Virus record (IMG/VR): IMGVR_UViG_3300035208_004923
Coordinates: 288,001 to 352,000 of that record
Length of the DNA stretch: 64,000 nt
Direction: 5' to 3' (one strand)
Origin: a virus
Lineage: Duplodnaviria > Caudoviricetes
Part shown: piece by piece, positions 1 through 57,058 of the stretch
Position numbering within the stretch: position 1 is the stretch's first letter
Layout of the letters: every line of letters starts with the position of its first letter
Made by a program: the position numbers and the translations under genes
Notes under the pieces: model-generated
Database searches by the model: none
Seen by the model: only the letters and a program-made list of their open reading frames with translations
Told to the model about the DNA's origin: nothing

Positions 1-495
1 GAATTGGGACGCCTTTTTTCGATGAATTTCAGTTATTGTATCAGCATCAACATCAATAACTTGATTTGTCATTTTGTAAAACAAATCACAAATTGCAGCC
101 ATTAATGGAACTTCCCAAAGAATTGTTCTGTACCAGTAACCGCTTATTGTTAAAATCAGATGACCTTCATCATCTTGGATAACTCCAACTTCAGATGGGT
201 CAAAACGATATACTTCAAGAAAATCAATAAATGCCATTGGCAAGAAAGGACATTTTTCAGCAAATTCCTTTTTACGTTGTTTCGACAATGTACGATTTCT
301 GAATCCGTCAATAACTCTACGAAGTTCAACGTCAAATCCTTTTGGATATACTGTGTTATTGCGATCATTGAAAGTGTATTTCACCTTTACATTAGGGAAA
401 CATTTCAAAACAGCCCAACACATCGTAAGTTTATACAAGTCAGTGAATAAAATTGATTCATAATTCGCTGGTTCAATAGATGGCGTGTATTTCAT
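1..495 (-). CDS. pncB: Nicotinate phosphoribosyltransferase, N-terminal part (runs off window start; absent from ORF track)
   Basis: Manual translation from ATG 495: MKYTPSIEPANYESILFTDLYKLTMCWAVLKCFPNVKVKYTFNDR...ISGYWYRTILWEVPLMAAICDLFY. TDLYKxTM and GxWxxTILWEVPL are PncB motifs; open to the window edge. Confidence 0.9.
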   Translation of the reverse strand, partial: MKYTPSIEPANYESILFTDLYKLTMCWAVLKCFPNVKVKYTFNDRNNTVYPKGFDVELRRVIDGFRNRTLSKQRKKEFAEKCPFLPMAFIDFLEVYRFDPSEVGVIQDDEGHLILTISGYWYRTILWEVPLMAAICDLFYKMTNQVIDVDADTITEIHRKKASQF

Positions 496-519
496 AATTT
501 ATTTTTTAGATTAATTTAA

Positions 520-560
520 TTAAAATCAAATATACAACATTTAATTATCAATAGCAATAG
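520..560 (-). promoter_or_regulatory. Class 1 (early, host-sigma type) promoter repeat
   Basis: Minus-strand consensus CTATTGCTATTGC-N7-ATGTTGTATATTTGATTTTAA; TATATTTG fits the Bacteroidota -7 TAnnTTTG with TTG about 20 nt upstream; precedes pncB. One of 16 copies. Confidence 0.85.
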
Positions 561-576
561 TATTTGCATTTATTTT

Positions 577-1227
577 TTATTTTTTATTTTTATAATCATT
601 AATTATTTTCCAATTATTTACAATTGCATCATTTTTAAGCATTTCATAATATACCCATTTCTTTATGTTAAGAAATTCAATTAATTTGTCACGCCCAAGA
701 ATACAGAGTTGTTCATTCGTTATTACGTTTTCAATAATGTAATATTTTTTATTTATATTTTGCAATGAAACCGCACGTTTTGCCAATATTTCGTCTGTTA
801 CATGTTTTGTGGCATCCCAAGCGTCTGCTAACGATTGTTTGTGTTCATCTGTTTTTTTAACATTTTTTAATTTATCGCGTATCTTATCTTTTGTTGATTC
901 TTTTAAATGAGTACCTAATCTTTTCAATCTTAGTTTTTCTCTAGTTTCGTCAGTAATACCTGAATATCCATCACCGCCGTACGATCTATTGTAACCAACC
1001 GTATGATTTGTTGAATCAAAAAATTTTATCCAATATTTTTCTTTTTCATTTAATTCATCAAACGACAATGCAGTATCTATAATATCTTTTACGAAATTGT
1101 GTTTTCCATATTTTCTTAAAGCATATTGTATTACAATGCCAGATCCTAAATACTTTGGATTATTATTTTTCGATTTACCTATGTAAATCTTGTTATTAAT
1201 AATGTTTGTAACTTTGTATATTATCAT
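577..1227 (-). CDS. GIY-YIG homing endonuclease (Seg-like)
   Basis: MIIYKVTNIINNKIYIGKS...YLGSG...ELNEKEKYWI...GYN; NUMOD3-like tail. Confidence 0.88.
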   Translation of the reverse strand: MIIYKVTNIINNKIYIGKSKNNNPKYLGSGIVIQYALRKYGKHNFVKDIIDTALSFDELNEKEKYWIKFFDSTNHTVGYNRSYGGDGYSGITDETREKLRLKRLGTHLKESTKDKIRDKLKNVKKTDEHKQSLADAWDATKHVTDEILAKRAVSLQNINKKYYIIENVITNEQLCILGRDKLIEFLNIKKWVYYEMLKNDAIVNNWKIINDYKNKK

Positions 1228-1240
1228 GAATACATTTATT

Positions 1241-1252
1241 TTATATATTCAT
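1241..1252 (-). promoter_or_regulatory. Class 3 (late-type) promoter motif (T)GAATATATAA(A), representative copy
   Basis: Same or near-identical motif 12-25 nt before the ATG at about 1241(-), 4762(-), 6241(-), 18101(-), 19478(-), 23901(+), 41241(-), 42016(-), 52947(+), 57018(-); several contain the T4 late consensus TATAAATA. Confidence 0.65.
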
Positions 1253-1311
1253 TCATATAAACAGATTTATATAAGTTAACCCAATTTAATCTCTCCGTCG
1301 TTTCAAAATTT

Positions 1312-1894
1312 TTAGTTTTTAATAGCTTCCCATAAATTTTGAATTAGAACAGGCAATCCTGTTATTGTAATGCCGCAAAGAATCACAAACATTGTGGTAT
1401 ATGCAGATTTATTACATATAGGATATATTCCAGACGTAGTTAATAATCCGCCAAAAATCACGAATATAACAAATGCAATTGCAAACATGAAACATATCAG
1501 TGTGAGGACATTTTTTTGTTTTTTATTCATAATTTAATTTTAAAGTTTAACAATTTTATATTTCTCCGCCTTTTTCAAAATTTCTTTTAGCTTTTATTGA
1601 AAGTTCTGTAAGTCTTTTCAATAAATCATCTTTAGGATATGATACATCATAACGTTTTCCACCTTTTTGCAATGAGAAAAAACATGGAGTATTTCCCCTA
1701 AATTGCCATTGCAATATTCCTACTCCTAAACTGTTTGCTCGATAATGATTTATACCCGTAATTGAACTTGAACACCAAACGAATCCGATATTATCTTCAT
1801 CATCGTGTGAATAAGTCATATGAAAAACTTTATTTAAGTGTTTTTCAAGAATCCTTTCAATTTGTTCCGCTGTTGCGTTTGATACTGATAACAT
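1312..1894 (-). other. Two hypothetical CDS: 1312-1530 (2 TM helices) and 1556-1894
   Basis: Tightly packed ORFs downstream of the class 1 promoter at 1916. Confidence 0.6.
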
Positions 1895-1915
1895 AATTTT
1901 TGTTTTATCAATTAA

Positions 1916-1956
1916 TTAAAATCAAATATACAACATTTTTCAAGCAATAGCAATAG
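1916..1956 (-). promoter_or_regulatory. Class 1 early promoter repeat
   Basis: ttaaaatcaaatatacaacat-N7-gcaatagcaatag on + strand. Confidence 0.85.
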
Positions 1957-2131
1957 AAATGCAAATTATTTTAAATTTTCAGCAAAAAAAGTATCATAAG
2001 AATCATAACGAATTAAATCAACAAATTTATTTTTCTTGTCAATTTTTGCATTTTGTTTTACGTTTTCGCATGGCTCTTCGTGTTCATCTTGTTTGTTATT
2101 TGCAAACAATTGAGGTACAACAATAACCATG

Positions 2132-2905
2132 TTATAAATCAGTACTTTTTGCAAATTTTATTCCTAACGATTTTGCTGCTTCCCATGTAGGGTCAGCAAT
2201 ATGTTCGAAACCTTGTACATTGCTCATGCAATCCTCAAGAATAACCAATTTTTTACGAACATCAGGATATTCAAAAAGTTGTTTTACCGTTTGTGCAACA
2301 CAATGTGATTTTGCCTCGCCTGTGATATAAATATTATCATATTTATTTAAAGAATTGATTAATTCCAAATTCCAATCTGTACTTGGAACGCCAGGTAATG
2401 CAACTTGTGCTTTAAAAATTCCGAAGAACTCTGTCAATATATGTTTACCTTTTAGAACTGTTGTGTATTCTTTACCGGTTCTTGACCATTCATTTATTGC
2501 TTCTTGCAATTCTGGAACGATTGATGCGCCATCAGAACCTGCAATACAATGTTCTGGCCAAATCAAATGAAGGTATTCACCAGATTGTTCTAATTCTTCA
2601 AGATATGTTTCAACAGTAACTGGTGCAATTGCTGGTACGTATTTACCTGCTTTTACATCAGCAAGTGTTATTGCTGTGAATACTGCTGGCTGATTACCGT
2701 TTTCATCTGTCCAAAATGATGGGTGAAAAATCGAAAATGGCTGATGCCAATCAAGTGATACGATAATGTTATCAATTGTTTCTGTATTTTTCTTAATGAA
2801 ATTTGAAATTCTTGTAATATCTTCAGGAGCACCGTTTACAAATAAACTTCCAGTTGGACTACAAAAATCTTTTTGCGGGTCAATGACAATGATGCAATTT
2901 CTCAT
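2132..2905 (-). CDS. pncA: Nicotinamidase (isochorismatase family)
   Basis: IIVIDPQKDFC..GSL.V.GA, SLDWH, WPEHCIAGSDGA, KG, GEAKSHCV. Confidence 0.88.
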   Translation of the reverse strand: MRNCIIVIDPQKDFCSPTGSLFVNGAPEDITRISNFIKKNTETIDNIIVSLDWHQPFSIFHPSFWTDENGNQPAVFTAITLADVKAGKYVPAIAPVTVETYLEELEQSGEYLHLIWPEHCIAGSDGASIVPELQEAINEWSRTGKEYTTVLKGKHILTEFFGIFKAQVALPGVPSTDWNLELINSLNKYDNIYITGEAKSHCVAQTVKQLFEYPDVRKKLVILEDCMSNVQGFEHIADPTWEAAKSLGIKFAKSTDL

Positions 2906-2908
2906 GAT

Positions 2909-3250
2909 TTATTTTTTAAATTTATAATTGAATTTTCGTGTTTGATTTTCCATAGCTTCCCATGTATCGTAAGCAGAATCGCGTTCCTTTATTTCTGCTG
3001 CTGTTAATTCTCTAACAATAAGTTCGCCTTTTCCGTTTAATGGATTTGCGTAATAACTATATCGTCCAGGTATATCGGAAAAATTAATAAAAGCATATCC
3101 TGTATCTTTTGACGTTGAATGTTCAACGCGATACCAATCAAGTTTCGGCTCGCAAATAAAGAACATTGTTGTTCTTTTATATTTCATAAGATAACTTTTG
3201 CCAAATTCAAAAGTGTATTTATTATCGTATGATTTTAATTTTTCTGCCAT
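2909..3250 (-). CDS. Hypothetical protein
   Basis: ORF packed between NUDIX and pncA. Confidence 0.6.
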   Translation of the reverse strand: MAEKLKSYDNKYTFEFGKSYLMKYKRTTMFFICEPKLDWYRVEHSTSKDTGYAFINFSDIPGRYSYYANPLNGKGELIVRELTAAEIKERDSAYDTWEAMENQTRKFNYKFKK

Positions 3251-3729
3251 TATATTAAGTTTTTCGATTTGAACAATTCTTTTAAAGATTCAAGATAGCA
3301 CTCTTGCGATATCATAATCATTTCTTTTGCTTCATCAAGCGAAAACATTCCAGGTTTTTCAACCTCTGGAAATTCTTGAAACTTTCCAGATTTTGGTGGC
3401 CATTCCATGGAAAACATATTCGATTTAATTACACCATTAAATTTTGAACGGAATGCCCATGCATATACCAATTTTCCTGAACCGTATTTTGCGTACGGTA
3501 TTTCGTCAAATGGCCCTATTGCACGAATTCCTGTTTCTTCTTCAAATTCGCGAATTGCACATGTAAGTAAATTTTCGCCTTGTTCAACGTGGCCTTTTGG
3601 GATTCCATAACATTTTTTATGTTTGTTCCAGAAATATGGCCCGCCTGCTTTAACAAGTAAAATTTTAGGAACTCCATCAATGATGTCCCATAAAACAAGT
3701 CCTGCTGATACTTCTGTTGACTTCCCCAT
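3250..3729 (-). CDS. NUDIX hydrolase
   Basis: Nudix box GHVEQGENLLTCAIREFEEETG; MEWPPKSG..QEFPEV subfamily signature. Confidence 0.9.
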   Translation of the reverse strand: MGKSTEVSAGLVLWDIIDGVPKILLVKAGGPYFWNKHKKCYGIPKGHVEQGENLLTCAIREFEEETGIRAIGPFDEIPYAKYGSGKLVYAWAFRSKFNGVIKSNMFSMEWPPKSGKFQEFPEVEKPGMFSLDEAKEMIMISQECYLESLKELFKSKNLI

Positions 3730-3749
3730 GATATAAATTATTTGTATAT

Positions 3750-3775
3750 TATATACATTATATTAAATTAGTTTT
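3750..3775 (-). promoter_or_regulatory. Class 2 promoter AAAC-N14-GTATA (putative phage-sigma/middle), representative copy
   Basis: Exactly 14-nt spacer in 12 minus-strand copies at about 3750, 4815, 10777, 11470, 13049, 15301, 23866, 31304, 38884, 42874, 50487, 58826, each shortly upstream of a start codon. Confidence 0.8.
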
Positions 3776-3794
3776 ATTTTGTTTTATCAATTGT

Positions 3795-3833
3795 TTAAAA
3801 TCAAATATACAACATTAATGAAGCAATAGCAAA
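3795..3833 (-). promoter_or_regulatory. Class 1 early promoter repeat
   Basis: Consensus match; in tandem with a class 2 promoter upstream of NUDIX-pncA. Confidence 0.85.
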
Positions 3834-3838
3834 TTTTT

Positions 3839-4750
3839 CTAATATTTTTTTGCTATATGTATCAATTCGCCAGATATATATCTAGGATCTGTTTTTAAAA
3901 CTCTAAAACATTTTCCTGTTTTTACATCCCGTACAGGAACAGTATCTGTGTTTTTATTTTTAGACCAATGTTGTAATTTGCCAGATGTATACCGTGGGTC
4001 ATCAATTGAAATTCTTATATTATTACCATTTTCATCAATAACACCTACTGTATTTTTTAATTTTTTTGAAACTGCTGCGTTTTTATGCCCGACCGATATA
4101 TGTTTTAATTCACCATTAACATATCGTGGATCGTCGACTGAAACCCTAAATGTATTTCCATTTATGTCGAATACTGTTACGAATCCTACAGAAGCAGCTA
4201 TTAATTCTCCACTAGTATATCGTGTATCATTAGTTGATACATTTATACATGTACCGTTACGTAATCTAACAGTTATTTTTCCTTTATTATCTAAAGCAGG
4301 AATCAATTTTCCTGCTTTATAATCCGGCGTTTCAACAGATGTTCTAAAACAGTTACCGTTTGCATCCTTAACAGTTATCATACCTTTATTATATGCAGTC
4401 AATTCTCCACTAACATATCTAGGATCATTTGTTGACACGCGTATTAATTTTTCGTCATCCTTAACTATCACGGTATTGCATGTATGAAAACCAATGTTTG
4501 GGATGTTATAGTTTTCATTTTTTTCATCATCAATGAACTTTGTTATTTCTTCTGCTTCAAATTTAATTGCATCTTCTCTGCAAATAAAGTCATCTTTGAT
4601 TATTTCTTTTATCAATTTTGATTTGTCAGGCTTCCACGTACACATTGAACCTAAGTAAGAATCTGATGATGGTAGGATTTTACAACTGCGTACGCCAATA
4701 TAAAATTGTCCTGTTTCTGTATGGGTTACTTTATAAACATAATGATACAT
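3839..4750 (-). CDS. GIY-YIG endonuclease with six ~33-aa DPRYxSGEL repeats
   Basis: YHYVYKVTHTETGQFYIGVR...YLGS; repeated VxVxDxxGxxxRVSxDDPRYxSGEL units. Confidence 0.85.
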   Translation of the reverse strand: MYHYVYKVTHTETGQFYIGVRSCKILPSSDSYLGSMCTWKPDKSKLIKEIIKDDFICREDAIKFEAEEITKFIDDEKNENYNIPNIGFHTCNTVIVKDDEKLIRVSTNDPRYVSGELTAYNKGMITVKDANGNCFRTSVETPDYKAGKLIPALDNKGKITVRLRNGTCINVSTNDTRYTSGELIAASVGFVTVFDINGNTFRVSVDDPRYVNGELKHISVGHKNAAVSKKLKNTVGVIDENGNNIRISIDDPRYTSGKLQHWSKNKNTDTVPVRDVKTGKCFRVLKTDPRYISGELIHIAKKY

Positions 4751-4898
4751 ATAACTTTTAATTTATATATTCTTTATATTTCGGTTGATTTTCCCATTTA
4801 TTTTTATTTATAATTTATATACATTAATATGCTGTAGTTTTCATTTAAATGAATATCTATGAACTTTTATTGCATCGACAATTGCAACTACAACAAAA

Positions 4899-5447
4899 TT
4901 AATATGTATTTAATGAATCAAGTTCTCTCCACATTTCTGGATATAAATCTCGTGTTTTTAATGATGCTCTGAAGATAATGTATTCCTCAGTATATGTTTT
5001 GTACTTTCTAGCACTTTCTTTATCAACACCAGATTTTGAATATCCTGTGTTGAATATTCTATCACAAAGTTTAACAAAAATTGCTTTATCGCATGGCCAG
5101 ATTTTTGGGTATGTTTTAAAATTCTTTTCTTTTCGAGTCCAACCGAATTCATTTGTTACTCGGTAAACAATCCATGCAACTTCTTTGTTGAACATTTTTT
5201 GCAATTTTGATGGTGTGATATCAGTATCTTCACAAATATCATGCGCGTAGCAGGCAGCAATAACATTTTCTCTGTCCGCTTCTGGCACCAAGTGAATATA
5301 ACGGAGTGCAACTTCGACAACCCCATTCAAGTGAAATGAATATGGTGCTGTTCCGTATCTTTGCGGCTCTGGTGCGTCATGTTTTTTAATTGCAAATTCT
5401 TTAACGTTATTTATCAATTTTGATTTTTCAATATTAAATGTTTCCAT
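4899..5447 (-). CDS. HD-domain (p)ppGpp hydrolase-like protein (small alarmone hydrolase/Mesh1-like)
   Basis: QRYGTAPYSFHL, AACYAHDICEDT, VKLCDRIFN; start moved to ATG 5447. Confidence 0.8.
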   Translation of the reverse strand: METFNIEKSKLINNVKEFAIKKHDAPEPQRYGTAPYSFHLNGVVEVALRYIHLVPEADRENVIAACYAHDICEDTDITPSKLQKMFNKEVAWIVYRVTNEFGWTRKEKNFKTYPKIWPCDKAIFVKLCDRIFNTGYSKSGVDKESARKYKTYTEEYIIFRASLKTRDLYPEMWRELDSLNTY

Positions 5448-5468
5448 AATTTTAATTTTTATCAATTG

Positions 5469-5506
5469 TTAAAATCAAATATACAACATTAATGAAGCAA
5501 TAGCAA
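5469..5506 (-). promoter_or_regulatory. Class 1 early promoter repeat
   Basis: Consensus match, nearly identical to the copy at 3795. Confidence 0.85.
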
Positions 5507-5514
5507 ATTTTTTA

Positions 5515-6228
5515 CTAATTATTTTTAAATTTCCATTTATATCCATTTGCAGTTTTGCGATTTCCTCTGCATACAGATGAAATCATTTTTTCATTGTATC
5601 CTGCTTCTTTTAATGCTATATAGTCAGGCCATTCTGCTATAAATTCATTTGTTAATGAAAATTGCAATATTATAATGTTTTTATATCTTGAATTTTTTCG
5701 TCCTTTTGCTCTATTACTGTAAAGTTCACGAATTTCTGCTGTAAATCTTTCTTTATGCGATAATGATTGTTTTTCTTTTGCAGATTGTAATTTTTCGTTA
5801 GCAATAGTATTTCCATATTTTTCAACCCAAATATCATATGCACATTTGCCATACATCGGATTATTTTTACCATTTACGTCATGATGATTTTCTGATATTT
5901 TTTGTTTATGTTCATCTGTAAATTTGCGGTTTTTATCAATTAATGGATTATTTGCGTATGTATCCCCGCCTTCTCCACCAACAGTTATATTATATCCGAT
6001 TATTCTGCTTGTTGAATTATAAATATTTATCCAATATATTTCCTTTTCGCATAATTCTTTATTTGTATCTGCAGTATCTATAATTTCCTTTTTAAAATTT
6101 GATTTGCCATACTTAATGATGGCAAATCTTAATAATTTGCCAGAGCCAATGTACTTTGGATTATTTCGACAATCTTTTCCTATATAAATTTTGCCATTTA
6201 TAAGATTTGTAGTTTTGTAAATTACCAT
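5515..6228 (-). CDS. GIY-YIG homing endonuclease with NUMOD/HTH tail
   Basis: VIYKTTNLINGKIYIG, GYNITVGGEGG, GKNNPMYGK, ISSVCRGNRKTANGYKWKF. Confidence 0.88.
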   Translation of the reverse strand: MVIYKTTNLINGKIYIGKDCRNNPKYIGSGKLLRFAIIKYGKSNFKKEIIDTADTNKELCEKEIYWINIYNSTSRIIGYNITVGGEGGDTYANNPLIDKNRKFTDEHKQKISENHHDVNGKNNPMYGKCAYDIWVEKYGNTIANEKLQSAKEKQSLSHKERFTAEIRELYSNRAKGRKNSRYKNIIILQFSLTNEFIAEWPDYIALKEAGYNEKMISSVCRGNRKTANGYKWKFKNN

Positions 6229-6271
6229 AATAAATTTTTATTTATATATTCATTATGTTACTTCACAAATA

Positions 6272-15275: not shown

Positions 15276-15316
15276 ATCAATTATTTTAATTTTATTTTAT
15301 TTTATATACAGAACAA

Positions 15317-15837
15317 TTATTTAGTTTTATATTTAGTAGGCATATTATCAGGATATCCTAATGAAGCTTTAATAGTTTCGATTATGTTGTATATTTCTTC
15401 CTTTCCTTCTTCAAGTTCTTCATTTGAAATATGTCCTTGCGCTTGTTGCAATCCAGAATGTATAATAAAAGCATTTTCTAATAGTTGAATTACATTATTA
15501 ACTTCTTGCCAAGAACGTTCGCCATTACACATATTTATTGCATTCATATGTATCAATTTTGATAACCGCATTTTTCGCATACTAAACCTGATACCATCAT
15601 TTGTCCGCAATTAGGGCATTCGATTGAATTTCTATCTTTTGGGATTTTCGATTGTTTCTCAAGTTGTTTCATAAGCCATTTCATCAAAGTTGATTCATAT
15701 TTAGGATTGCCGTGAACGAAAACTACATTATCCGATGTTTCAGTATCGAAACTTATTGACTCAATAACAGGTGCTGGTTTTGAATAATCAGTTATAAAAT
15801 GATATTCCTTTTCAAACTTTAGTTTATCGTTTTCCAT
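15317..15837 (-). other. Two hypothetical CDS (15317 to about 15548; 15553-15837 with C-terminal CxxC..CxxC Zn ribbon)
   Basis: ORF track; CPNCG...CEKCG. Confidence 0.55.
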
Positions 15838-15859
15838 GTTTATGTTTTAAAATAAAAAA

Positions 15860-16100
15860 GCGGCCAACAATAAGATTCGCACTTATTGCTGTCCTTTTAC
15901 GATTCGTCACCGTAAAAGTTAGACCTAATAGATTCCGAGTCTTAACACCTTAACAACCTTGATGCACAAGGCCTTGCCTTCGAACGCTCTACTAACGGAA
16001 ATTGTTGCAGACAATTTCAACGGGACACGTGCTTGATTATTGCTTCCATTTGGGCGTGACCTCCTAGCCTCTCAATCACGAGATATTTATTCGGGCTCGT
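15860..16100 (-). ncRNA. Unidentified structured RNA (~240 nt) downstream of the RNA ligase
   Basis: GC-elevated intergenic tract with at least 4 hairpins (gaaattgt/acaatttc, ccttg/caagg, cttttacg/cgtaaaag, cagcaataag/cttattgttg), two loops ending in CGAAT, then a T-run. Confidence 0.6.
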
Positions 16101-16107
16101 ATTTTGA

Positions 16108-17154
16108 TTATTTTTTGCTATTATCGAGAATGTTCAAAAAATCGGCACGAATCATATTTGACCATTCAGCACCCATTCTTTTTGTAAGTACTTTTTGTTC
16201 TTTTAAATCAAGTGCTTCAAATGATTCTCGTTCATCCTTTAAAAAGTCGTTCATTGTGTCTCCCATGCATTCACCCACAATTTTACCGAACATTTTATCG
16301 TTAAGTTCACCTAATTTTGAAATAACCGCATTTAAACGATTTTCATTAACATATTGCATCAATGTTTCAAGTAATTCATTGCCTGCTTCTGATAATTCGA
16401 TTGCTTCTTTTGGTTGTTTCATTGATTTTTCTCCAGATTTCTTTCCAGTGATTTCAGCATATTTTTCATTTTTGTTTTTGAAAATTACACGGTTACCTGC
16501 CCATGAACGTTTTACTTCAATTGGCTTAATAACAACACCTTCACAAACATTACCTTCAATTTCAGGTAAACCTAATCTTTTAGGAATTGTTGTTGGAAAT
16601 AAATTTGGGTATTTAAGGCATTCGTTAAAAGTTCCTTCGAATAAAGGTTCGTCCCAAAAAATACCGAATTGCTCGCAAAGTTCACCTTTTTGTGTTTCAC
16701 CTAATAAACGTCCATTTACTTTAATATCAAAACAGTAAAATTCATTAGTTGGTGAGTAAAATAAACCTTTTTGTACTGCAGTTGCATGTGGATTTCTTGG
16801 TACATCTGGATGAGGATATGTACCGCCGAAAAGTTCACCGTATACTACAAGTTCGCCAAGGTCAAATTCCATACCAAAATCTTTGATTTCTGATTTGATG
16901 AAATCCCACATAGCAATAATTTTAGGATTTTCTTTTGTTGCAACTTCTTCATAATTGAAAAAGTTTTCAGTTGCATCAATGAATCCTGTTCTTTTTGCAT
17001 ATTTCATTTTTACACCATCATACCAAAATGAAAAATTTGAATTGTGAACAAGAATATCATCGGCAAAAAAGTTATGATTATCTTCAACTTCAATATCATG
17101 TCTTTTTGATTTAATGTCAATTTTTTTAATCGACTTGATTCCAACTATTTCCAT
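16108..17154 (-). CDS. Split intein C-fragment (aa 1-38) fused to RNA ligase 2 C-extein
   Basis: MEIVGIKSIKKIDIKSKRHDIEVEDNHNFFADDILVHN|SNFSFW; ligase motifs VYGELFGG, FYCFDI, EGVVIKP, FKNKNEKYAE, YVNENRLNAVISK. Confidence 0.92.
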   Translation of the reverse strand: MEIVGIKSIKKIDIKSKRHDIEVEDNHNFFADDILVHNSNFSFWYDGVKMKYAKRTGFIDATENFFNYEEVATKENPKIIAMWDFIKSEIKDFGMEFDLGELVVYGELFGGTYPHPDVPRNPHATAVQKGLFYSPTNEFYCFDIKVNGRLLGETQKGELCEQFGIFWDEPLFEGTFNECLKYPNLFPTTIPKRLGLPEIEGNVCEGVVIKPIEVKRSWAGNRVIFKNKNEKYAEITGKKSGEKSMKQPKEAIELSEAGNELLETLMQYVNENRLNAVISKLGELNDKMFGKIVGECMGDTMNDFLKDERESFEALDLKEQKVLTKRMGAEWSNMIRADFLNILDNSKK

Positions 17155-17157
17155 GTT

Positions 17158-18087
17158 TTAATTGTTTATAAAATTAATTATGTTATTTATCGTTTCTTCA
17201 AAATTTTTATTTATGTCGTATTCCCATACAACGCATGTTTTATAGCCTGCAGCTTCTATATAAGAAATACGGTTTTTATCGTGAGTCCAAATATCCACAA
17301 CTGTTCTTGTCGAATTTCTTGGAAATTTGATTACGTCGTTTTCTTTATACTTTCTTGGGTTAGCATGCCAATAATCACCATATGCTTCTATTACTTTATT
17401 TGTGTTCTTAATGAAAATATCAACCCTATAAGGATATACATTATATTCAGTTTTTGTTTCGTACCCTAATTTTAACAATTCATTATTAATTTTTTGTTGC
17501 AGCTTAGATACATTTCCACCAAATTTATTATTCGGTGATTGGATAGGATATCTATATCCGTGTGATTCTTCATAGTTATCAAAAAACTTCTTCGTAAATA
17601 CTGGAGATTGCATATGGCTAGCAAAACCGTATACTTCAATATGATGAGCAATAATTTTTCTTTTTACATCTTCTCTTTGAAATACATTTGTTATATTTTC
17701 ATCATCAAGCAAACGTTGTGTCCATTCCTTTCTTGATGTATGTTCTTTACAAAAGTTATGTTTTGCGCCGTGTCTTTCCAAGTTTGTTGTTTCCGTTTTG
17801 TCTTTGCAACGTTTTTCTTTTTTTGATTCTTTTATACTACGAGTTCCTATGCCATGCGCATTCATTAATTTGTTAACCGAACATGATGAACGAATTCCAT
17901 GTTCATGCGCAATTTCATTACATGATTTCCCGTTTACCCAATGTTCATTATATAGAAATTCCTTTGTTAAAATTTCTTTTTTGTACGTTTGCCATTCCTT
18001 GCATTGCCATTGAAAATGATTTGATATTACATTAGGCCGTGTCACTTCGATTTCTTTTTTGCAAAAAGGACATTGATAAAGTTCCAT
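17158..18087 (-). CDS. Free-standing Vsr/DUF559-like endonuclease between the split-intein halves
   Basis: YRVDIFI..NKVIEAYGDYWHANP...D..R...GYKTCVVWE; N-terminal Zn finger; own late-type promoter. Confidence 0.85.
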   Translation of the reverse strand: MELYQCPFCKKEIEVTRPNVISNHFQWQCKEWQTYKKEILTKEFLYNEHWVNGKSCNEIAHEHGIRSSCSVNKLMNAHGIGTRSIKESKKEKRCKDKTETTNLERHGAKHNFCKEHTSRKEWTQRLLDDENITNVFQREDVKRKIIAHHIEVYGFASHMQSPVFTKKFFDNYEESHGYRYPIQSPNNKFGGNVSKLQQKINNELLKLGYETKTEYNVYPYRVDIFIKNTNKVIEAYGDYWHANPRKYKENDVIKFPRNSTRTVVDIWTHDKNRISYIEAAGYKTCVVWEYDINKNFEETINNIINFINN

Positions 18088-18152
18088 AAAATTTATTTTT
18101 ATTTATATATCAATATTCTTTTGTGAAAAATTGCACAAACTGTAATTTTTCA

Positions 18153-18617
18153 CTAATCTATAAGAACTTTATCATTTGTTGTTAAATCTTTAACTTGTCT
18201 CCAGCAATGTAATTCGGGCAACCAAATATAATGAGACCCTGTGACTTGTATGATTTTGCCATTCGTTGTTTCAATTTCATACCAATCATTGTTATCTTCT
18301 TTAATAGAAAAATTAATAACACGTTTCCATTCAATTTCATTGGTATCAATATTCAAACTTTTGGCATGACAATCAAGTCTTTCTTCAATTATCTTTCCTA
18401 TTGCAAGCTTGCCAAATTCTAAAGTATCAACAAGTGATTCATAAGTAAGACAACCATGCACTTTTTCTGATAATCGCCAAACGCCACCTGCATTGCCTTG
18501 TTCTGTAATTCTGTCAATTTCACGACCACGATATGTGTTCTCAATTTCTGAATATTTCGTAAATTTTCCAGGAACAAATGTATGTTCATTTGTTGTGTTA
18601 ATGATTTGATCTTGCAT
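18153..18617 (-). CDS. RNA ligase 2 N-extein fused to split intein N-fragment (99 aa)
   Basis: FTKYSEIEN...WRLSEKVHG|CLTYESLVDTLEFGKLAIGKII...VTGSHYIW...DKVLID*; motif I KxHG then Cys1 at 18452; block B TxxH. Confidence 0.92.
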   Translation of the reverse strand: MQDQIINTTNEHTFVPGKFTKYSEIENTYRGREIDRITEQGNAGGVWRLSEKVHGCLTYESLVDTLEFGKLAIGKIIEERLDCHAKSLNIDTNEIEWKRVINFSIKEDNNDWYEIETTNGKIIQVTGSHYIWLPELHCWRQVKDLTTNDKVLID

Positions 18618-19467
18618 TTTTCGTAATTTTAAATTCGTAATCAATTAAATTATTTCGTTTGTTTATCATTGCGTAATTTGTTGCTTTTTCTAATAAGTTC
18701 AGTGTATTTGATGTTATTTTACCTTTATTTAATAATGAAACGATTGAAGCGTATGGCATATTATTTTGTTTCGCAAATTTTATCATTTCGCTCACACCTA
18801 AAATTTCGATAATATCGTGTGTCGGTGTAATAACATTATAAATTATCATTTGCCATTTTCTTTTATATTCTTTATATTCGTCACTTCTTTTTTTACCCGT
18901 ATTCGATTCTCCTATTTTAGCTCTATGCTCTTCTGTACTTTTGTGTCCTCTTCTAAATGTATGCAATCCTTCATTTTTTGCAAATGTTAAATTCCATTTT
19001 TCTTTTGCTGCGCTACGTTCTTCATCAGTTATTTTAGTTTGCGCTTCCTGCATTGATGCTTTTACTTTTATTACATATACAGGGTCATTCCAACGTTCTG
19101 CTGTTGCTTTGCCTATTTTTTGTTTTGTTGAATCTTTTAATACTTTTTCTTTTGCTGCTTCGGACATGTGTTGTCTATGCGAATCAGTGAAAACTAAACC
19201 TTGTGTGCCGCCTCCACCATCTGTTAGATTATATCCTATATTTGAATCCTTTGCATGCAATTCTTTTATCCAAAAAATTTCTTTTTCGTTTAGTTCATCA
19301 GTTGTATTAGCGGTATCAATAATTTCTTTTTTGAAATTCTCAATGCCATATTTTTTTATTGCTTTATTTATTAAAATGCCTGAACCAAAATAATTAGGAT
19401 TATTATGCGAATCTTGGCCAACGTAAATTTTGCCATTAATTAAATTTGTTATTTTATAGATAATCAT
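18598..19467 (-). CDS. GIY-YIG homing endonuclease
   Basis: MIIYKITNLINGKIYVGQ...YFGSG...GYNLTDGGGG; NUMOD3-like repeats. Confidence 0.88.
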   Translation of the reverse strand: MIIYKITNLINGKIYVGQDSHNNPNYFGSGILINKAIKKYGIENFKKEIIDTANTTDELNEKEIFWIKELHAKDSNIGYNLTDGGGGTQGLVFTDSHRQHMSEAAKEKVLKDSTKQKIGKATAERWNDPVYVIKVKASMQEAQTKITDEERSAAKEKWNLTFAKNEGLHTFRRGHKSTEEHRAKIGESNTGKKRSDEYKEYKRKWQMIIYNVITPTHDIIEILGVSEMIKFAKQNNMPYASIVSLLNKGKITSNTLNLLEKATNYAMINKRNNLIDYEFKITKNARSNH

Positions 19468-19543
19468 ACTTGTTTATTTTATATATCAAATATGTTTTCT
19501 TCAATTTCACAATACTTTTTAAATTGTTATGGCAATCGATTTA

Positions 19544-19894
19544 TTATAAAAGTTTAATTCCTGGTTTTGCATTTACTGTAAGTGTTATGCCTCTTTCAAT
19601 TTCGCCTGGCATAATCATTGCGGTTGATTCAACGCCCATCATTTTAACAGGCTTTAAATTTGTAATAAAAGGAAAACATAATCCTTTTAAAACCAAATTG
19701 CATTCGTCCAAGTCACCAATGTGTTGTTTAATGTTAGTAACAACCCATCTTATATCTTCATCGCCAAAGTCGACAACTAATCTTATTAGTTTATCAGATT
19801 TTGGAATTCCCATGACTGCTGTGATTTTTCCTATTTTAATTTCAAGTTTTTTCTCTATCTCGAGAAATTCCGCAAATTCAATTTGTTCTTTCAT
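19544..19894 (-). CDS. tRNA-binding OB-fold protein (Trbp111/CsaA/MetRS C-domain-like)
   Basis: IEFAEF..LEIKIGKI, SDKLIRLVVDFG, NLKPVKMMGVESTAMI. Confidence 0.85.
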   Translation of the reverse strand: MKEQIEFAEFLEIEKKLEIKIGKITAVMGIPKSDKLIRLVVDFGDEDIRWVVTNIKQHIGDLDECNLVLKGLCFPFITNLKPVKMMGVESTAMIMPGEIERGITLTVNAKPGIKLL

Positions 19895-57010: not shown

Positions 57011-57058
57011 GATTTTTATTTATATATTAAAAGATACGCATTGTTATTTTGAAGTTAT

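Follow-up and report, generated by a model that had tools for sequence, protein, structure and literature searches.

An Rnl2-type RNA ligase gene of a Caudoviricetes phage probably fractured by a split intein and a free-standing EDxHD endonuclease gene

A stretch of 64,000 nucleotides (nt) of viral DNA (Duplodnaviria; Caudoviricetes; IMG/VR record IMGVR_UViG_3300035208_004923, positions 288,001 to 352,000), referred to here as the window and belonging to a contig of 425,361 base pairs (bp), encodes an RNA ligase of the Rnl2 type in two separate pieces. Very probably this is a live fractured gene, invaded after the codons of ligase motif I (K-V-H-G) by a mobile cassette that is composed of the N-terminal half of an intein (IntN), a free-standing gene for an EDxHD endonuclease and the C-terminal half of the intein (IntC), so that a complete enzyme is probably obtained only by joining the two polypeptides. 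The list of open reading frames (ORFs), together with the DNA itself, places three successive ORFs on the minus strand, namely the N-gene, the endonuclease gene and the C-gene, with the following parts (positions in the window):

18153..18617, minus strand: rnl2 N-gene, 154 amino acids counted from ATG
18644, minus strand: TTG, a possible alternative start of the N-gene
18453-18617, minus strand: N-extein, 55 amino acids, ends SEKVHG; motif I EKVHG with Lys52
18156-18452, minus strand: IntN, 99 amino acids, starts CLTYESLV at Cys56 (= Cys1), block B TGSH, ends LID
18153-18155, minus strand: stop codon of the N-gene, TAG, with TGA immediately after
18123..18153, minus strand: hairpin with a 10-bp A/U-rich stem, beginning at the final base of the IntN stop codon
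18097..18110, minus strand: promoter-like gene-start motif ATATATAAATAAAA, which includes TATAAATA, 9 nt ahead of the endonuclease ATG
17158..18087, minus strand: free-standing EDxHD (Vsr-like) homing endonuclease gene, 309 amino acids
16108..17154, minus strand: rnl2 C-gene, 348 amino acids
17041-17154, minus strand: IntC, 38 amino acids, blocks F and G, end ILVHN
16111-17040, minus strand: C-extein, 310 amino acids, with Ser+1 (SNFSFW), motifs Ia, III, IIIa, IV and V, and the Rnl2 C-domain

Neighbouring enzyme halves on one strand, each joined to an intein fragment and separated by a free-standing homing endonuclease ORF, make up the arrangement of a fractured gene, and this is what the locus contains. 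The ORFs and the DNA agree with a preliminary description of this DNA, in which SEKVHG and a 99-residue IntN with Cys1 and TGSH had been placed on the N-gene, and a 38-residue IntC ending LVHN and followed by Ser+1 (SNFS) on the C-gene. The ATG of the C-gene lies 3 nt past the stop codon of the endonuclease gene; these two genes share a frame with only TAA AAC between them, and the N-gene and the endonuclease gene are in different frames. An antisense ORF on the plus strand (16040-16738), of low complexity, has been taken as spurious.

The comparison with other inteins supports a class 1 split intein that appears to hold all the catalytic blocks and to be akin to the DnaE, gp41-1 and NrdJ-1 inteins. 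In fact, IntN matches the solved Npu and Ssp DnaE inteins (4LX3, 4QFQ; expectation value [E] 4e-6), a likeness to cyanobacterial DnaE IntN that had also been noticed in the preliminary description, and in this alignment its Cys1 falls on Cys1 of Npu DnaE and its T126-G-S-H129 on TKDH of the same intein. IntC matches the Spl DnaX, gp41-1 (E 0.0016) and NrdJ-1 (E 0.008) inteins, with its C-terminus in register with those of Spl DnaX and gp41-1. In the alignments of six N-halves and six C-halves, in which the others are 42-66% identical to those of the window, Cys1, T-G-x-H and Cys28 (C83 of the N-gene) are invariant among the former, and D20, H27-N28-F30-A31, V36-H37-N38 and S39 (Ser+1) among the latter; all six N-halves terminate within a few residues of one point. 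The earlier wording of a basic IntC holds in part, because its net charge is -2 overall but +4 across its first 19 residues, while IntN has a net charge of -7. Both intein halves are predicted to dock: for IntN extended by six extein residues and IntC by ten, the predicted complex has a score of 0.90, the best of 3 controls reaching 0.04, and the runs agree in at least 93% of the contacts, with a partner pLDDT (predicted local distance difference test) of at least 79. The mark applied to these predictions is reached by 58 of 80 solved complexes and by 2 of 110 mismatched pairs.

The assignment of the host enzyme as an Rnl2-type RNA ligase, already proposed from the sequence, is supported by Pfam, PHROGs and the match to T4 Rnl2. 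The C-gene product matches the Pfam families RNA_ligase (PF09414; 52.9 bits, cut-off 27) and T4_Rnl2_C (PF18043; E 3e-20, 72.7 bits, cut-off 27), and carries AKRTG, GELFGG, FYCFD, EGVVIKP and KNKN as counterparts of motifs Ia, III, IIIa, IV and V of T4 Rnl2 (2HVQ). On the PHROGs RNA ligase model phrog_548 the N-extein corresponds to positions 2-41 and the C-extein to positions 40-340 (E 2e-54 for the C-gene). The joined exteins form a protein of 365 residues that can be aligned end to end with uninterrupted Rnl2 homologues, the closest of which (P0003) is 64% identical to the predicted product and has an identical junction (SEKVHG|SNFSFW). The proposed restoration of motif I at the junction (EKVHGSNFS, compared with EKIHGTNFS in T4) matches these uninterrupted homologues as well as 2HVQ, which reads IHGTNFS at this point. 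The nucleophilic Lys lies on the 55-residue N-extein, on the other chain from the remaining motifs, as had been claimed; it is residue -4 relative to the junction, V, H and G standing in between, and not three residues before it. Since this Lys is on one chain and everything else on the other, it is reasonable to expect that ligase activity would need splicing.

The gene between the halves had been called Vsr-like, and the profile search bears this out. In the 309-residue protein, a CxxC...H..C finger at the N-terminus and repeats of a KYG..N motif are accompanied by a C-terminal nuclease core with D223, E234, D238 and H241; the first two of these are invariant, and the protein of the window carries E-A-Y-G-D-Y-W-H. 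The profile of nine of its homologues matches the I-Bth0305I catalytic domain (3R3P; E 7.6e-7) and Escherichia coli Vsr (1CW0; E 1.5e-4), and its Glu aligns with the invariant glutamate of the family described by Dassa et al. (PMC2677866); for these reasons it is assigned to the EDxHD family. This is the family that appeared as 'Vsr-like' in the 2009 work on fractured genes (PMC3239194, PMC2677866), and its prototype, I-Bth0305I, is an active homing enzyme from a group I intron of recA (PMC3239194).

Mobility of the cassette is suggested by the distribution of alleles with and without it. Among the best 120 homologues of the C-gene, five others start with the same IntC and 102 are uninterrupted; the residue at +1 is Ala in 72, Ser in 29 and Thr in one of the latter, and Ser in all the intein-bearing alleles. 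Public metagenomes contain at least ten further half-genes (five N-halves and five C-halves) of this Rnl2 intein, and its six IntN sequences group into one supported clade (97/91). In P0122, P0123 and P0125 the N-extein is letter-identical to the start of the uninterrupted P0004, P0003 and P0005, respectively, and therefore cassette-bearing and cassette-free alleles coexist in near-identical backgrounds. The clearest example concerns a second RNA ligase gene of the same phage contig, which is uninterrupted there (locus L020) and agrees at 100% over 2 x 123 bp with the flanks on a metagenome contig (L014), where an insert of 1463 bp with the order IntN-EDxHD-IntC follows KLDGEN. Compared with L020, a changed tract of 10 nt in L014 converts TSI to SSL and creates Ser+1. 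The L014 intein is of a different lineage within the same family, since it is only about 36% identical to the Rnl2 intein. Such variants with and without the cassette, one of them with flanks identical to those of the phage's second ligase gene, offer natural material for studies of intein-plus-endonuclease homing. In GenBank phages, megablast of 16000-19500 gave no match; an IMG/VR scan with the alignment of N-halves returned only uninterrupted Rnl2 loci; and a search for a contiguous (cis) form of the Rnl2 intein among longer proteins returned only the uninterrupted P0003, which is weak evidence of its absence.

The surroundings of the three genes bear on how the two halves would be expressed. 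The additional elements are:

18598..19467, minus strand: free-standing homing endonuclease gene, GIY-YIG with NUMOD3, 289 amino acids (PHROGs phrog_314, E 1e-40)
19473..19486, minus strand: second copy of the 14-nt gene-start motif, 5 nt ahead of the GIY-YIG ATG
15865..15891, minus strand: downstream of the C-gene, terminator-like hairpin carrying a T run

The GIY-YIG gene lies directly upstream of the N-gene, which its last 20 nt overlap, and so the ligase gene is beset by two different selfish endonuclease genes. The octamer TATAAATA, known as the T4 late-promoter sequence, is present at 18100-18107, ahead of the EDxHD gene. It is not enriched in the AT-rich window (20 sites against 14.3 expected), and for this reason it was replaced in the analysis by the longer motif ATATATAAAWWAAA, which has 14 nt and contains TATAAATA. 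Counted with at most one mismatch in the window, ATATATAAAWWAAA has 13 sites against 4.4 expected, an excess of about three-fold that none of 100 shuffles reached, and 12 of the 13 stand 3-20 nt ahead of an ORF with ATG, mostly on the minus strand (for example 1235-1248, 4757-4770, 6236-6249, 15296-15309, 18097-18110, 19473-19486 and 57014-57027). Similar motifs precede the endonuclease genes of five other loci (L009, L011, L014, L019 and L021). The motif is promoter-like, and may be a phage promoter or a translation-start element containing the T4-late-like TATAAATA. The own late-type promoter attributed earlier to the endonuclease gene survives in part: a promoter-like gene-start motif is there, the octamer is not enriched, and 'late' is an analogy with T4 only. 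A scan for sigma-70-type promoters gave no excess over shuffles (23 sites against 20.6). At the hairpin near 18123-18153, a second, weaker helix can enclose the endonuclease ATG, and hairpins alike are found in the same place at L006, L007, L009, L011, L014 and L021, the energy z-scores of the single hairpins being modest. The copy of the motif at 19473-19486 is likely to be the start of the unit that carries the N-gene, which is probably co-transcribed with the upstream GIY-YIG gene, and the hairpin at 15865-15891 is likely to end a transcription unit. Because there are two copies of the motif, the two ligase halves are probably transcribed from elements of one kind, and a selfish endonuclease gene precedes each half.

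The sequence of events that would follow from a live fractured gene begins with the synthesis of two polypeptides. The shorter, of 154 residues, has the nucleotidyl-accepting Lys52, and its gene is probably co-transcribed with the GIY-YIG gene; the longer, of 348 residues, has the C-domain as well as motifs Ia to V, and its gene probably shares a transcript and translational coupling with the endonuclease gene, downstream of a separate promoter-like motif. IntN, which is acidic, and IntC, whose N-terminus is basic, would associate into a HINT fold, and class 1 trans-splicing would proceed through the Cys1 thioester, the transfer to Ser+1, the cyclisation of Asn38 and an O-to-N shift, giving a 365-residue ligase with a normal EKVHG-SNFS motif I. 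Before splicing, either half alone should be inactive, and Rnl2 activity in this phage is expected to require two transcripts as well as a post-translational step. During mixed infections, a cassette-free rnl2 would be cut by the endonuclease near those codons, and repair would copy the cassette in (homing).

Several points weigh against this account. Splicing, the dependence of activity on it, and homing are what we infer from sequence. The Pfam model Intein_splicing (PF14890) gives 26.3 bits for the N-gene and 21.8 bits for the C-gene, both below the cut-off of 35.8 bits; the comparison with intein models falls short in this respect, although the register is correct (positions 12-93 of the model for the N-gene, 123-155 for the C-gene) and the matches to solved inteins are significant. 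The predicted docking of IntN and IntC may reflect likeness and is not a proof, because similar split-intein complexes have already been solved. As regards mobility, the pairs with identical N-exteins were compared as proteins only, an exact loss of the cassette would yield the same pattern of alleles as its gain, and an intein-free allele of this very phage's rnl2 was not found, the closest uninterrupted homologue being only 64% identical. In addition, the target of the endonuclease could be an endonuclease-free intein allele instead of an intein-free rnl2.

A decaying selfish element is an improbable alternative; here rnl2 would have been broken by the cassette, splicing of the intein would have ceased, and the two parts of the ligase would be turning into pseudogenes. 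The phage could tolerate this thanks to the second, uninterrupted RNA ligase, which stands on the same contig beside a protein with HD and AAA_33 kinase domains, and what Rnl2 contributes to phage biology is not known to have been established, even for T4. Decay is hard to reconcile with three intact ORFs, with the preservation of every catalytic residue of intein and ligase here and in five other alleles of each half, and with a single clade of six Rnl2 IntN sequences with conserved blocks. Quite improbable, too, is that the intein halves are a mere module for non-covalent dimerisation, which would make a two-chain ligase, or a conditional switch gated by redox (Cys1/Cys28) or by the timing of transcripts. 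The predicted tight binding of the halves, the invariance of IntN Cys28 in six alleles, and the position of the halves behind two separate copies of the gene-start motif would fit such a role, but a folded intein of 137 residues would sit in motif I, between the Lys loop and the remaining adenylyltransferase domain. Moreover, all the splicing residues are conserved, Asn38 and Ser+1 among them, although a full set is needed for splicing only, and the intein-bearing alleles all have Ser at +1, against Ala in 72 of the 102 uninterrupted homologues. Finally, a joining of the halves before or during translation into a cis intein protein, by an intron around the endonuclease gene, stop read-through or recoding, is very improbable: the endonuclease gene and the C-gene do share a frame across TAA AAC, but this is not kept in L007 or L008, the N-gene is in another frame and ends in TAG directly followed by TGA, the six N-halves end near one point, IntN ends the protein in 147 of the best 150 representatives of its family, and Rfam gave no intron or other credible RNA in 15700-19700 (sole match 24 bits, threshold 117). 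Recoding of TAG or TGA was rejected as well, since with TGA directly after TAG it adds at most one residue to the N-gene product.

A live fractured gene places the rnl2 locus among systems that are already known. Fractured genes were described in 2009 by Dassa, London, Stoddard, Schueler-Furman and Pietrokovski as phage enzyme genes broken by split inteins, and the hosts named there are gp41 (gp41-1..9), IMPDH, DnaE, NrdA, NrdJ, DNA ligase, terminase and one protein of unknown function (PMC2677866). The layout that the preliminary description had recognised matches them: a split intein, placed within an active-site motif, divides the gene of a conserved phage enzyme, a free-standing Vsr-like or GIY-YIG endonuclease gene lies on the same strand between the halves, and a hairpin and a TATAAATA-type element stand ahead of the endonuclease gene. 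On the other hand, the host here is an Rnl2-type RNA ligase, which is absent from the hosts named there, the rnl2 hairpin comes after the stop codon of IntN without clearly covering the start of the endonuclease gene, and the N-gene is abutted by a second homing endonuclease gene (GIY-YIG). A full-text search of the literature for inteins in Rnl2 or other RNA ligases returned only RtcB-type and tRNA-splicing ligase inteins of actinophages and none in Rnl2. The earlier remark that no Rnl2 example was known agrees with this search, but the case is not unique in view of the half-genes in public metagenomes. RNA ligases would be added in this way to the enzymes known as fractured, and we found no paper reporting so. 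The novelty is real and, judged from the sequences, consists in a new host enzyme for a layout known since 2009, not in a new kind of system.

The best sequence match of the rnl2 IntN is to the cyanobacterial DnaE inteins (Npu, Ssp; 4LX3, 4QFQ, 2KEQ, 1ZD7), with which it shares near-equal fragment sizes (99 and 38 residues), Cys1, TxxH and Cys28, an acidic IntN and a basic start of IntC. Unlike the DnaE inteins, which have Cys at +1, the rnl2 intein has Ser in this position, and its halves are encoded by adjacent genes with an endonuclease gene between them instead of distant loci, in a ligase and not in a polymerase. The gp41-1 and NrdJ-1 inteins (6QAZ, 6RIZ, 8UBS) are likewise split inteins of phage-type fractured genes, and the rnl2 IntC matches both, but the sequence similarity is low, the host enzyme is another, and the rnl2 intein is known from sequence alone. 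For protein engineering, this is a Cys1/Ser+1 split intein of 99 + 38 residues, related to and yet distinct from those of DnaE, gp41-1 and NrdJ-1, with many natural variants on hand for tests of speed and orthogonality. The window endonuclease shares with I-Bth0305I (3R3P) a C-terminal nuclease core with conserved E, D, H and D residues, but its gene is free-standing within a split intein and not placed in a recA group I intron. As for the host, T4 Rnl2 (RnlB; 2HVQ, 1S68) has the same two domains (PF09414 and PF18043), motif I K-x-H-G and motifs Ia, III, IIIa, IV and V, whereas the T4 enzyme is one uninterrupted polypeptide, and the match to it is local only (E 1.4e-20).

The Rnl2 intein has many relatives at the same place of other ligases. 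A scan of metagenomes recovered 15 loci in which different ligases have this type of intein immediately behind motif I. In most of them the halves are separated by a homologous endonuclease gene; one locus lacks this gene, and in two the intein is contiguous and includes a LAGLIDADG domain. A search with IntN alone in 1.84 billion representative proteins gave 535 clusters at E <=0.001 and 241 at E <=1e-10. Among the best 150 family representatives, IntN is the end of the protein in 147, and it directly follows K-x-H-G in 67 and K-x-D-G in 44 (54 with ten whose predicted start is one residue off); in most other cases it comes after a variant of motif I (K-x-E-G, K-x-N-G, or K-x-D-G with one or two more residues), and in five it follows KTDE(E/P)(R/L). 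The hosts in these 150 are mostly PHA02142-type RNA ligases (65), with Rnl1-like ligases (10) and a few DNA ligases besides, while an Rnl2-type N-extein is found in only two clusters. Going by these matches, the IntN family is large, almost always split and placed at motif I of polynucleotide ligases, with Rnl2 as a minor host, and the loop of the active-site Lys of ligases appears to be a hot spot, with hundreds of sequence clusters that are nearly all split (147 of the best 150). A broader proposal, possible and in our opinion rather doubtful, is that the Rnl2 cassette is a branch of a large, all but undescribed, motif I-specialised family of split inteins that has passed time and again from one ligase gene to an unrelated one (Rnl2, PHA02142-type, Rnl1-like and HNH-fused RNA ligases, and NAD- and ATP-dependent DNA ligases), maybe as one IntN-endonuclease-IntC unit that recognises the DNA coding for K-x-(D/H)-G, and that it is polymorphic in two ligase genes of one phage lineage. 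A further step of this proposal would be that the phage times its ligase activity through the two-transcript layout.

Related inteins, some of them putative, occur elsewhere too. Two near-identical metagenome contigs (L017, 3615-5798; L018, 4557-6740) encode a 728-residue RNA ligase (PHA02142 oligonucleotide-binding [OB] fold and PF09414) with a contiguous LAGLIDADG intein at the same site of motif I (EKIHG, then CLTY), and their neighbour genes give the impression, and it is only that, of being cellular and possibly cyanobacterial. The only match of the N-half by tblastn in GenBank phages was a weak one of IntN in another host gene, of Streptococcus phage vB_SagM-GXN1. In this phage (L022; PQ819873.1:121301-126600), an unannotated ORF of 868 residues (1277-3883) has an IntC-like start and, later, an IntN fused in frame to an EDxHD-like nuclease region, and a separate ORF of 124 residues (3864-4238) starts with IntC; these look like several inteins in one unannotated phage gene.

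The contig to which the window belongs holds further loci of interest, all on the minus strand:

L019 (G000:C1:363500-368500), 3571-4434, 2397-3509 and 1726-2421, minus strand: fractured IMPDH/GMP-reductase-like gene with intein halves
L021 (G000:C1:100500-105500), 3329-3823, 2184-3266 and 326-2200, minus strand: fractured large terminase gene (Terminase_6N) with intein halves
L020 (G000:C1:371000-375000), 1495-2688 and 343-1491, minus strand: second, uninterrupted RNA ligase and the HD and AAA_33 kinase protein

The second RNA ligase has an HNH-like N-terminus and PF09414 (E 1e-28), and with the adjoining HD and AAA_33 kinase protein it is likely to form an RNA-repair pair. In L019, which resembles the IMPDH-1 type of Dassa et al. 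(2009), the N-half ends GIGGG and is followed by CFIRG, IntC ends IVHN and is followed by SGC, and an endonuclease ORF of 370 residues with NUMOD3 lies between. In L021, the terminase is cut after the GK of Walker A, and an EDxHD endonuclease gene is found between the halves. The intein of L021 is split unusually early, with an IntN of about 55 residues and an IntC of about 146 that seemingly includes block B, an arrangement reminiscent of the AceL-TerL type of split intein. Finally, more intein matches were seen in the same bin (1.6 Mb, 78 contigs), on C37 of G000 (1149-1721 and 4690-5922) and on C32 (10540-10641), which may be of phage or cell origin.

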